Assembly: GCA_963817705.1 (NCBI GenBank)
Contig: CAWFPF010000007.1
Span: 7,275 to 71,274, forward strand
Length of the DNA: 64,000 bases
Source of the DNA: an uncultured Alphaproteobacteria bacterium
Lineage (GTDB): Bacteria; Pseudomonadota; Alphaproteobacteria; Rhizobiales; Rhodomicrobiaceae
Direction of reading: 5' to 3'
The stretch's first letter is position 1. Each line of letters opens with the position of its first letter. Of the stretch, positions 61,032 to 62,387 are shown piece after piece. Below the pieces are notes generated by a model. That model was not told the DNA's origin, did no database searches, and was given only the letters and a program-made list of their open reading frames with translations. Position numbers and translations under genes: made by a program.

Positions 61032-62387
61032 ATGGCGGAACACGCAAAGCCATCGCGGATAGACGTAATTGAGCGCAAGCGCTTGCTCGACGCGTTCTTC
61101 AAGGTCGACGAGGCCACGGTCTCGCACGAGCAATTCGACGGCGAAATGAGCCCGCCAAGGCCGGTTCTGATCTTTGAGCGCGGCGATGCGGTGGCAGCCC
61201 TGCTCTACGATCCGGACCGCCGCAAGGTCATCACCGTCAATCAGTTCCGCTTTCCGGCCTATGGCAAGGACGATGGCGGGGGATGGCTCGTGGAGGCCGT
61301 CGCAGGCATGATCCATGACGGCCAAGACGGCACGCCGGCGGAAACCCCGATGCAATGCCTGATACGCGAGGTGAAGGAGGAGACGGGATACGAAATCGCT
61401 AAGGCAACGCTCGTGTCCAAGTTCTTTTCATCGCCGGGCGGAAGCACGGAGCTGATTCACCTTTATTACGCCGAAGTTCGAAGACCCGACAAGAAGAGCG
61501 AGGGCGGCGGTGTGAGGGCGGAAGGCGAGGATATTGAGGTTGTCGAGTTCGGCATCGAGGATTTCTTCGCGAAGCTCGCCGCTGGAGATTTCAAGGATCC
61601 CAAGCTCATCATCGCGGGCCAGTGGTTGATGGCATCGCGCAGTCTCGACTTCTTCGCCCGTTTGGAAGGTGTTCGCTCCCGGAAGAAAGATGATCGGGCA
61701 GAATTTGATCCAACCGTATCGAGAACGATTGCATACAAAGTTATGAAAGGCGAAGGACGCAACCTCGGCATCAAGACTGGCGATATCAAAGCGGTGCGCG
61801 GTGCCGATGCCTGGGTGAACTCCGAGAATACAGACATGATGATGGACCGCTTTTTCGGGAAGTCCGTTTCGGCCTCCATCCGGTATCTTGGCGCCGAAAA
61901 GGATCAGGACGGCATCGCGATTAAGAAGGACACCATCGGCCGGGCGCTGACTTCCGAGCTTGGGGAGCGCAATTACGTCGAGCCTGGCTATGTTATTGAG
62001 ACAACCTCCGGCGAACTGGCCAAACATCCCTACTACGTCAAGGGCATTTTTCACGTTGCAAGCGTTCGCGGCCAGATTGGAGCGGGGCTAAGAACGTCTC
62101 TGTCGACGGTGCAGGAGGCAATGGACAACATTCTTGCAAAGATCGAAGCGGCGAGACGCTACCGGTCCGTACTCGTGCCTTTGCTGGCAACGGGACAGGG
62201 GGATTCTCCGATGGAGCAGGTCGCACCTATTCTCGTAGACCGTGCGCTCGCCTTCTTCAGCGAGCGCTCCAACACCTACCTCAAAGAAATCTATTTCCTT
62301 GCCTATACAAGCAGCGCTAAAGAGCTGCTGGAGAGCTTGCTGCGGGGTAAGACGGTGGGAGCCGATCCAGCGCTCTCGGTGACATAA
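61032..62387 (+). CDS. NUDIX hydrolase (ADP-ribose pyrophosphatase-like) fused to a Macro domain
   Basis: AVAALLYD...QFRFP...EAVAGM...REVKEETGY...SPGG (NUDIX); GDIKAVRGADAWVNSEN...IFHVAS...VLVPLLATGQG...IYFLAY (Macro fold). Confidence 0.85.
   Translation: MAEHAKPSRIDVIERKRLLDAFFKVDEATVSHEQFDGEMSPPRPVLIFERGDAVAALLYDPDRRKVITVNQFRFPAYGKDDGGGWLVEAVAGMIHDGQDGTPAETPMQCLIREVKEETGYEIAKATLVSKFFSSPGGSTELIHLYYAEVRRPDKKSEGGGVRAEGEDIEVVEFGIEDFFAKLAAGDFKDPKLIIAGQWLMASRSLDFFARLEGVRSRKKDDRAEFDPTVSRTIAYKVMKGEGRNLGIKTGDIKAVRGADAWVNSENTDMMMDRFFGKSVSASIRYLGAEKDQDGIAIKKDTIGRALTSELGERNYVEPGYVIETTSGELAKHPYYVKGIFHVASVRGQIGAGLRTSLSTVQEAMDNILAKIEAARRYRSVLVPLLATGQGDSPMEQVAPILVDRALAFFSERSNTYLKEIYFLAYTSSAKELLESLLRGKTVGADPALSVT

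Follow-up and report, generated by a model that had tools for sequence, protein, structure and literature searches.

A NUDIX-Macro fusion gene genetically linked to a predicted membrane lipase in Rhodomicrobium and related alphaproteobacteria

Two bacterial immune systems are among the closest described points of comparison for the gene examined here. In type II Thoeris, the Macro domain of ThsA binds ADP-ribose (ADPR) and imidazole- or His-ADPR ligands and oligomerises (PMC11204291; bioRxiv 10.64898/2025.12.03.692087), and in the cyclic-oligonucleotide-based antiphage signalling system (CBASS) the patatin-like phospholipase CapV is described as a cell-killing effector (PMC12480259). We analysed a 64,000-nucleotide stretch of DNA (the window; GenBank assembly GCA_963817705.1, contig CAWFPF010000007.1, positions 7,275 to 71,274) from an uncultured alphaproteobacterium that falls in the same GTDB genus as Rhodomicrobium vannielii. 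Near its end, an open reading frame (ORF) of 451 amino acids (aa) at 61032..62387 on the + strand joins a NUDIX domain to a Macro domain. This gene is probably one half of an undescribed two-gene unit whose other half is the lipase gene that follows it, an arrangement that would tie an ADPR-type molecule to the breakdown of membrane lipids. Macro sensors and patatin effectors are known from nucleotide-signalling immunity (Thoeris II and CBASS), and NUDIX enzymes are known as ADPR degraders; the module brings all three together without a signal synthase, and full-text literature searches (Nudix/macrodomain/patatin/TIR/Thoeris) returned no description of either the fusion or the module. The two genes comprise the following features.

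61032..62387, + strand: NUDIX-Macro fusion gene (ORF, translation, domain matches and AlphaFold2 [AF2] model).
61032..61649, + strand: YffH/AdpP-type NUDIX domain, residues 1-206, including an N-terminal beta-sheet region matching the N-terminal domain of NudK and ADPR pyrophosphatase (ADPRase).
61305..61391, + strand: Nudix box, G92...E104...R112-E113-x2-E116-E117-x-G119-Y120 (alignment of 42 homologues).
61647..61706, + strand: flexible inter-domain linker, about residues 206-225 (predicted local distance difference test score, pLDDT, below 50 for residues 206-220; alignment variable and gapped).
61713..62366, + strand: predicted Macro-fold domain of a distinct clade, residues 228-445 (family profile, AF2, Foldseek and clade-wide conservation).
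61812..61883, + strand: loop-1 region of the Macro domain, W261 to R284, with N263, E265, N266, M269, M271, R273 and S280 between them (alignments).
62178..62204, + strand: loop 2, the putative equivalent of the diphosphate-binding loop, P383-L-L-A-T-G388-Q-G-D (P383 and G388 invariant).
62388..62425, + strand: intergenic gap of 38 bp with a GGAGG ribosome-binding site at 62412-62416 (sequence).
62426..64000, + strand: partner gene, a predicted membrane-anchored patatin-like phospholipase with a GTG start, running off the window.
62495..63358, + strand: N-terminal membrane domain of the partner, residues 24-311, with about 8 hydrophobic helices (Kyte-Doolittle scan).
63527..63637, + strand: patatin oxyanion loop G368-G-G-I-Y-A and nucleophile motif S399-A-V-S402-G-G of the partner.

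The resemblance to type II Thoeris lies in the Macro domain, whose nearest sequence relatives are proteins with two N-terminal transmembrane helices followed by Macro (2TM-Macro), the same layout as ThsA; the window module would also share with Thoeris the idea that a Macro domain senses an ADPR-type ligand and translates this into membrane damage. However, the window protein gave no match to PF20016 (ThsA_Macro) at E values up to 1, its Macro domain has no transmembrane helices of its own (the membrane component is a separate patatin lipase), and no TIR gene (ThsB) adjoins the window locus, where the domain partnered with Macro is instead a NUDIX hydrolase. The comparison with CBASS concerns the second gene, which carries the Ser-Asp dyad motifs of patatins and fits the concept of a nucleotide-controlled lipase turned on the cell's own membrane. 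Unlike CapV, this partner has an N-terminal domain of about 8 transmembrane helices, lacks a known cyclic-nucleotide pocket, is linked to Pfam Patatin only via its homologues, and gave no match in PADLOC, and there is no CD-NTase among the neighbouring genes.

The evidence for a two-gene unit is genetic. Among 25 genomes of the genus, the window's own included, the best lipase match lies directly downstream of the fusion in all 17 genomes that carry it. A species-level scan (one genome per species) yielded 52 loci from Rhodomicrobium, Hyphomicrobiaceae, Hyphomicrobium, Xanthobacteraceae, and unclassified Hyphomicrobiales or Alphaproteobacteria, and NUDIX, Macro and patatin occur in this order on one strand in 50 of them; many of these loci come from metagenome-assembled genomes (MAGs), and some split genes may be assembly errors. 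The adjacency of fusion and lipase is seen in five unrelated flank contexts, including those of R. vannielii ATCC 17100 and Rhodomicrobium MAGs (flanked by a lipoate-ligase-like gene and DJ-1), of two lineages with CTP synthase and a histidine kinase as flanking genes, of one lineage with PtsP and RF-1 in these places, and of a Hyphomicrobiaceae MAG with a fusion of just 36% identity and a degenerate Nudix box. ORF clustering of the 52 loci, blurred by antisense shadow ORFs in high-GC DNA, found no third gene common to the contexts outside the synteny of the genus. The DJ-1/PfpI gene just past the window end (L008:6224-6829) was considered as a component and rejected: it lies downstream of the lipase in Rhodomicrobium and near the pair in one Hyphomicrobiaceae MAG, is absent from the other contexts, and is probably genus synteny.

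One congener (G002) indicates how the parts are divided. In its deletion locus (L018:5780-7054, G002:C2), a NUDIX-only gene of 209 aa, 69% identical to the NUDIX half in the window, is followed after a 10-bp gap by DJ-1/PfpI and then an AMP-binding enzyme. The window genome has liv ABC components (ATPase) upstream of the fusion, and downstream the patatin gene, DJ-1/PfpI and the AMP-binding enzyme; the same genes thus follow the NUDIX gene in G002 and the lipase in the window genome, and G002 has therefore lost Macro and lipase jointly and retained only the NUDIX half. The Macro-bearing form is obligately linked, in genetic terms, to the membrane lipase.

In the window a terminator scan found no terminator-like hairpin in the 38-bp gap between the two genes, which are probably co-transcribed; in other genomes the spacing ranges from gaps of about 10-170 bp to overlaps. 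The full partner gene encodes 830 aa (G000:C7:69700-72192, equivalent to L008:3701-6193). We recognised patatins by a G-G-G-x-[RKY] oxyanion loop, a G/A-x-S-x-G nucleophile and a D-G-[GA] catalytic Asp, and the blocks GGGIYA (residues 368-373), A-V-S402-G-G, SARFP (residues 607-611) and FVD632GGY are invariant in 34 homologues of the partner, with the catalytic D632 (FVDGGY) falling past the window end. Pfam Patatin (PF01734) matches 25 of the 34 homologues (best E value, 2.2e-8), the window's own copy having no Pfam match at a maximum E value of 0.1, and a search of the partner profile against PDB sequences gave no meaningful match. The protein is 36% identical to that encoded after the R. 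vannielii fusion (Rvan_1341 in ATCC 17100; E value, 8e-66), which UniRef labels a PNPLA-domain protein, the database label of the partner being otherwise "hypothetical". We predict that the partner is an active membrane lipase, and because its N terminus is Arg rich and its helix count even, the lipase domain would face the cytoplasm, where the NUDIX-Macro protein, which lacks transmembrane helices, would reside. One database entry for the partner (P0185), taken from an assembly nearly identical to the present one, is 99% identical and has only 495 aa. It diverges after residue 441 and so loses Asp632, through either a frameshift in a sister strain or an error of assembly; the copy in the window genome is intact at 830 aa.

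The C-terminal half of the fusion matches Pfam Macro (PF01661) only marginally (residues 301-400, 23.1 bits against a cut-off of 22). A profile of the family, however, recovered PDB entries for the PARP14 and macroH2A macrodomains at E values of 8e-14 to 1e-7 and also those of PARP15, YmdB and MacroD2, the whole range being 8e-14 to 1e-5. The AF2 model of residues 225-451 alone (227 aa) has a pLDDT of 92.2 and a predicted template-modelling score (pTM) of 0.91, and among the 50 matches listed by Foldseek against the PDB, all 50 are macrodomain structures or engineered proteins that contain one (macroH2A 7NY6 at an E value of 5.5e-12 and TM score of 0.86, as well as Af1521, PARP14 and YmdB; TM scores of 0.75 to 0.86 over full single-domain targets). 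The model and these matches confirm the predicted fold of the C-terminal half as Macro, so that a sequence-only reading, which had described the protein as a NUDIX domain fused to a divergent Macro domain and had named a different C-terminal fold as the result that would overturn it, is borne out here by profile, model and structural comparison. That reading ended at 62387 and so did not take in the linked membrane patatin lipase, the most telling clue of all. The domain resembles the macrodomains of macroH2A1.1, Af1521 and PARP14 in fold (Foldseek probability, 1.0; TM scores, 0.77 to 0.86) and in the retained VN..N strand end and P..G.G second loop, but is only 15-20% identical to them, and its loop 1 is about 4 residues longer.

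The clade has a signature of its own. The sequence-only reading had pointed to VNSENTDMMMDRFFGKSVSASIR in place of the usual VNAAN...GGGV loop, and this motif is present at residues 262-284. The canonical N-x6-GGG-V-D...H loop of macrodomains is here replaced by N266, then TDMMMDRFF, then G-K-S-V-S280-A-S-I-R284, so that GGG-V-D...H becomes G-K/R-S-V-S...R in the window clade. W261, N263, M269, S280 and R284 are invariant within the fusion family and 91-100% conserved in the wider clade; across 150 clade representatives of any architecture, conservation of 86-100% extends to G250, D259, W261, N263, E265, N266, M269, M271, R273, S280, R284, D300, T324, G327, H341, P383 and G388. Because this signature is so widely kept, the altered loop is, as read from the alignments, not decay, and the domain falls in a separate clade that has a pocket of its own, in which the polar residues E265, N266, R273, S280, R284, D300, T324 and H341 are retained whatever the architecture (pocket correspondences were drawn from alignment and inspection, not from superposition). 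Loop 2 appears to correspond to the P-x-I-S-T-G-x-Y-G loop of macrodomains. For MacroD-type ADP-ribosyl hydrolases we looked for an N-x6-G-G-[VLI]-[DA] loop, a catalytic Asp/His and an aromatic residue in loop 2; on inspection of the alignment, the GG/Asp/His motif is absent from the Macro domain, and this absence favours binding, or a different or new chemistry.

The NUDIX half was recognised by Pfam NUDIX (PF00293; residues 50-181, E value of 1.8e-10, 41.4 bits against a cut-off of 21.1) and by the YffH/AdpP model TIGR00052 (114.9 bits against a cut-off of 79.55), in which residues 11-199 of the protein cover model positions 4-186 of 188. It failed both equivalog models, scoring 99.8 bits against a cut-off of 248 for NudF (NF008003) and 96.7 bits against 234 for NudK (NF011585), and by these scores is a relative of NudF and NudK and an orthologue of neither. 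The closest solved relatives by sequence are E. coli NudK (PDB 1viu/3o52; E value, 3e-25) and ADPR pyrophosphatases (E values of 3e-22 to 6e-21, with E. coli ADPRase 1g0s at 6e-21), and Foldseek comparison of the full-length AF2 model (pLDDT, 88.3) gave target TM scores of 0.8 to 0.92 on NudK and ADPRase structures (0.89 to 0.92 on NudK). Compared with E. coli NudK/YffH (1VIU, 3O52, 3O61) and NudF (1G0S; Klebsiella 9B1Z), the domain belongs to the same TIGR00052 family with TM scores of 0.8-0.92, is 29-33% identical over about 200 aa, and keeps the N-terminal beta-sheet region, the Nudix glutamates and the downstream acidic residue; it differs in its fusion to Macro, its longer G-to-E loop and its linkage to a lipase gene.

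The REVKEETG box (residues 112-119), which had been noted in the sequence as intact in an ADPR-pyrophosphatase-like domain, is both intact and conserved. We took as the Nudix box GX5EX7REUXEEXGU with its metal-binding glutamates. Across the 42 aligned homologues G92, E104, E113, E117 and G119 are invariant, R112, E116 and D167 are at least 90% conserved, and the G-to-E spacing is 11 residues in the window copy and 5 in some homologues, the loop having been lengthened. E113 and D167 align with E100 and D152 of NudK, the residues mutated in the 3O61 and 3O6Z structures. Because the catalytic residues are intact and conserved, the NUDIX half is predicted to be catalytically active. In the divergent Hyphomicrobiaceae fusion (L014:4527-5984, 36% identical), the box reads EETLCEAGY instead of REVKEETGY, yet the gene still lies upstream of a 1016-aa patatin protein; NUDIX activity may therefore be dispensable in some lineages.

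Beyond the fusion, an exhaustive search with the Macro domain recovered 693 cluster representatives. The main form outside the fusion is the 2TM-Macro protein, of about 350 aa with exactly two N-terminal transmembrane helices, and half of the wider family is anchored in this way; other architectures include NUDIX-X-Macro and X-Macro-NUDIX (about 600 aa), TPR-Macro and DUF4062-nSTAND1-Macro. In a cyanobacterium and another genome, the 2TM-Macro gene overlaps the stop of a NUDIX gene of 192-196 aa that is 45% identical to the window's NUDIX half, and among 80 metagenome loci with this Macro clade, a YffH-type NUDIX gene lies directly upstream of the Macro gene in 49 of the 58 with enough upstream sequence to assess. 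NUDIX and this Macro clade have thus been joined independently as fusions, as NUDIX-X-Macro, as X-Macro-NUDIX and as coupled genes, and these repeated combinations imply a shared ADPR-containing ligand. The partnership is old and general, whereas the link to the lipase is specific to the fused form of alphaproteobacteria. The intervening "X" domain is soluble, about 170-190 aa, and matches PADLOC "Effector TIR" positions 260-349 (L068 residues 233-318, E value of 2e-6; P0335 residues 31-119, 1e-7).

The distribution of the fusion is that of a lineage-restricted, chromosomally stable accessory module. Within the 25 genomes of the genus, 17 carry it (15 intact and 2 fragmented), 3 have a NUDIX-only orthologue without a Macro domain and without an adjacent lipase, and 5 have no homologue, two of them 99% complete. 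The Macro domain has no match in 300 genomes drawn evenly across the class, from which the fusion is therefore also absent. The sequence-only reading had allowed that the protein might be a housekeeping NudF variant present in all relatives; with 17 of 25 genus genomes and 0 of 300 class genomes carrying it, it is not. Because the 300 class genomes lack a match and two 99%-complete congeners lack a homologue, the fusion is not a general housekeeping gene. It is nonetheless a conserved family, with more than 120 full-length homologues of 420-475 aa that databases label "NUDIX domain-containing protein", "GDP-mannose pyrophosphatase" or "ADP-ribose pyrophosphatase".

Our preferred reading, to which we give a probability of roughly 0.45, is of a Macro domain that binds an ADPR-type ligand and relays its presence to the lipase, with the NUDIX half destroying that ligand. 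The Macro domain would bind free ADPR or an ADPR conjugate, possibly also processing either, and in its liganded state would control the partner's cytoplasmic lipase domain, switching on hydrolysis of membrane phospholipids. The NUDIX half would cleave the ADPR moiety to AMP and ribose-5-phosphate, thereby setting a threshold and ending the response as a built-in eraser. Because the module includes no signal synthase, the ligand would derive from cellular NAD+ breakdown, to which the 14 TIR-domain ORFs of the genome could contribute, and the output might be anti-phage cell suicide or a stress or lipid-remodelling response. A hydrophobicity scan found no hydrophobic or transmembrane segment in the NUDIX-Macro protein, which is predicted to be cytosolic. 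Coupling of Macro to lipase is suggested because both are gained and lost together and the NUDIX half is able to stand alone, and a sensor-effector role because relatives in the clade are membrane-anchored Macro proteins laid out like an ADPR-conjugate-gated effector. An analogy is offered by the TRPM2 channel, in which an ADPR-handling NUDIX-type domain (the NUDT9-homology domain) is coupled to the activity of a membrane protein; TRPM2 differs in being a eukaryotic single polypeptide, an ion channel rather than a lipase, and in lacking a Macro domain.

Several observations weigh against this ligand-gated reading. The module lies amid housekeeping genes, syntenic within the genus, and its Macro domain has no match in 72,556 plasmids or 50,697 phages, all of which is atypical of defence islands. 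The module has no dedicated TIR partner or signal synthase, the one TIR-linked case described below is single, and in the 80 metagenome loci neither a TIR nor a patatin gene adjoins the NUDIX/Macro pair. A relation between TIR counts and the module was considered and rejected, with 0-20 TIR ORFs in congeners without the module and 1-21 in those with it. PADLOC, run on the fusion, the partner and relatives, gave only weak matches (the Macro of ThsA, ThsA1, at an E value of 0.013 for the window protein and 0.002 for a relative), and the module was accordingly rejected as a catalogued defence system. The many invariant polar residues of the Macro pocket could serve catalysis instead of sensing. 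Specificity of the NUDIX half for ADPR or GDP-sugars is not readable from its sequence, because its scores are far below both equivalog cut-offs and NudK and ADPRase score alike. Finally, the orientation of the two domains in the full-length AF2 model is uncertain (pTM, 0.56).

A broader version of the ligand-gated reading, which we regard as rather unlikely, holds that the NUDIX and Macro clade together form a widespread, TIR-independent ADPR alarm, in which Macro would sense ADPR or a derivative released when an NADase or ADP-ribosyltransferase, of host or phage, attacks the NAD+ pool, and would trigger a membrane effector that NUDIX silences below a threshold.

Among competing explanations, the one that survives best is metabolic salvage or detoxification, an unlikely reading that still deserves consideration. 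The Macro domain would strip a group from an ADPR derivative (O-acyl-ADPR, ADPR-1''-phosphate, or an ADP-ribosylated small molecule or lipid) to yield ADPR, which the NUDIX half would convert to AMP and ribose-5-phosphate, with the lipase acting on the same lipid-linked or acylated substrate or being only loosely related. The fusion is the sole TIGR00052-type (YffH-type) NUDIX and the sole Pfam Macro domain of its genome, NUDIX/Macro pairs are widespread without a TIR or effector neighbour, the neighbourhood is chromosomal, syntenic and housekeeping with no plasmid or phage match, and the invariant polar residues of Macro are suggestive of catalysis, all of which suits an enzyme of this kind. 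But the MacroD-type motif (GG...D...H) is replaced by K/R-S...S280...R284, and the absence of the gene from two 99%-complete congeners and of the Macro clade from 300 class genomes argues against core metabolism. The linkage to a transmembrane patatin at 50/52 loci and the joint loss of Macro and lipase need a functional tie, and anchoring of half of the wider family by two transmembrane helices would be odd for a soluble salvage enzyme.

It is improbable, in our judgement, that the membrane patatin is a toxic effector and the NUDIX-Macro protein its dedicated, antitoxin-like inhibitor, acting mainly through direct binding by Macro with ADPR chemistry secondary. The tight gene order, the probable co-transcription with the putative regulator first, and the loss of Macro and lipase together in G002 are what such a pair might show, and patatin lipases kill cells as CBASS effectors (PMC12480259). 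The Macro signature, however, is equally conserved in architectures without a lipase partner, and its residues would therefore serve a ligand or a reaction and not a lipase interface; the NUDIX catalytic residues are strongly conserved; and at a second copy in G014 the NUDIX-Macro gene appears to be broken and the lipase next to it still intact, although a MAG error is possible. Very improbable is a NudK-type (GDP-mannose) NDP-sugar pyrophosphatase that tunes envelope sugar-nucleotide pools and carries Macro as a degenerate or structural appendage: NudK gives the best PDB matches by sequence and by fold (E value of 3e-25, TM scores of 0.89-0.92), marginally above ADPRase, but the NudK equivalog score is 96.7 bits against a cut-off of 234, Macro is among the most conserved parts of the protein with a clade signature 90-100% conserved, and the repeated independent pairing of NUDIX and Macro points to an ADPR-type substrate.

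Connections between the module and known conflict systems are of three kinds and thin: a TIR gene overlap in a Burkholderiales MAG, TIR-nSTAND1-patatin proteins, and the PADLOC matches to ThsA. In the Burkholderiales MAG (L068:3123-6651), the end of a TIR_2 ORF at 4880 overlaps the start, at 4870, of a 593-aa NUDIX-X-Macro gene of the same Macro clade, a possible Thoeris-like pair and the only such case seen. Two TIR-nSTAND1 fusions (P0179 and P0195, 1368/1416 aa; TIR_2, nSTAND1 and patatin) carry the patatin clade of the partner, and a 921-aa protein (P0338) combines DUF4062 and nSTAND1 with Macro of this clade; STAND NTPases can therefore carry either of these domains, patatin or Macro, as a C-terminal module as well. 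The window genome has 14 ORFs with Pfam TIR_2 (e.g., C2:602407-602736, C4:86945-87235 and C3:87422-87745), congeners have 0-21, and the genus is unusually TIR rich.

Hyphal, budding alphaproteobacteria maintain the module as a stable part of their chromosomes, and the Macro clade and its NUDIX partnership span many phyla. If the ligand-gated reading is true, it would represent a new logic, with the amount of an NAD+ breakdown product acting as the gate for a membrane effector and an eraser built in, and it would assign a function to a large family now labelled "NUDIX domain protein", "O-acetyl-ADP-ribose deacetylase" or "hypothetical". Were the wider alarm also true, abortive-infection or stress modules would gain a new class, one that responds to a breakdown product and does not make its own second messenger. 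Should the model fail, the family would still be an ADPR-processing pair awaiting characterisation, and its distinctive Macro active site would merit biochemistry.

The start of the NUDIX-Macro gene is likely the ATG at 61032, which agrees with the N termini of aligned homologues (equivalent motif M-x-E-x-x-K-P-x-R-V). A TTG at 60990 was rejected as the start: it would traverse a hairpin at 60992-61005, which the ATG avoids while also fitting the homologues. Further upstream, palindromic repeat elements at 55827-56472 and 59918-60060, translated as ...SPLGEKG/DR.RG... in several frames, lie around and inside the liv ABC operon.

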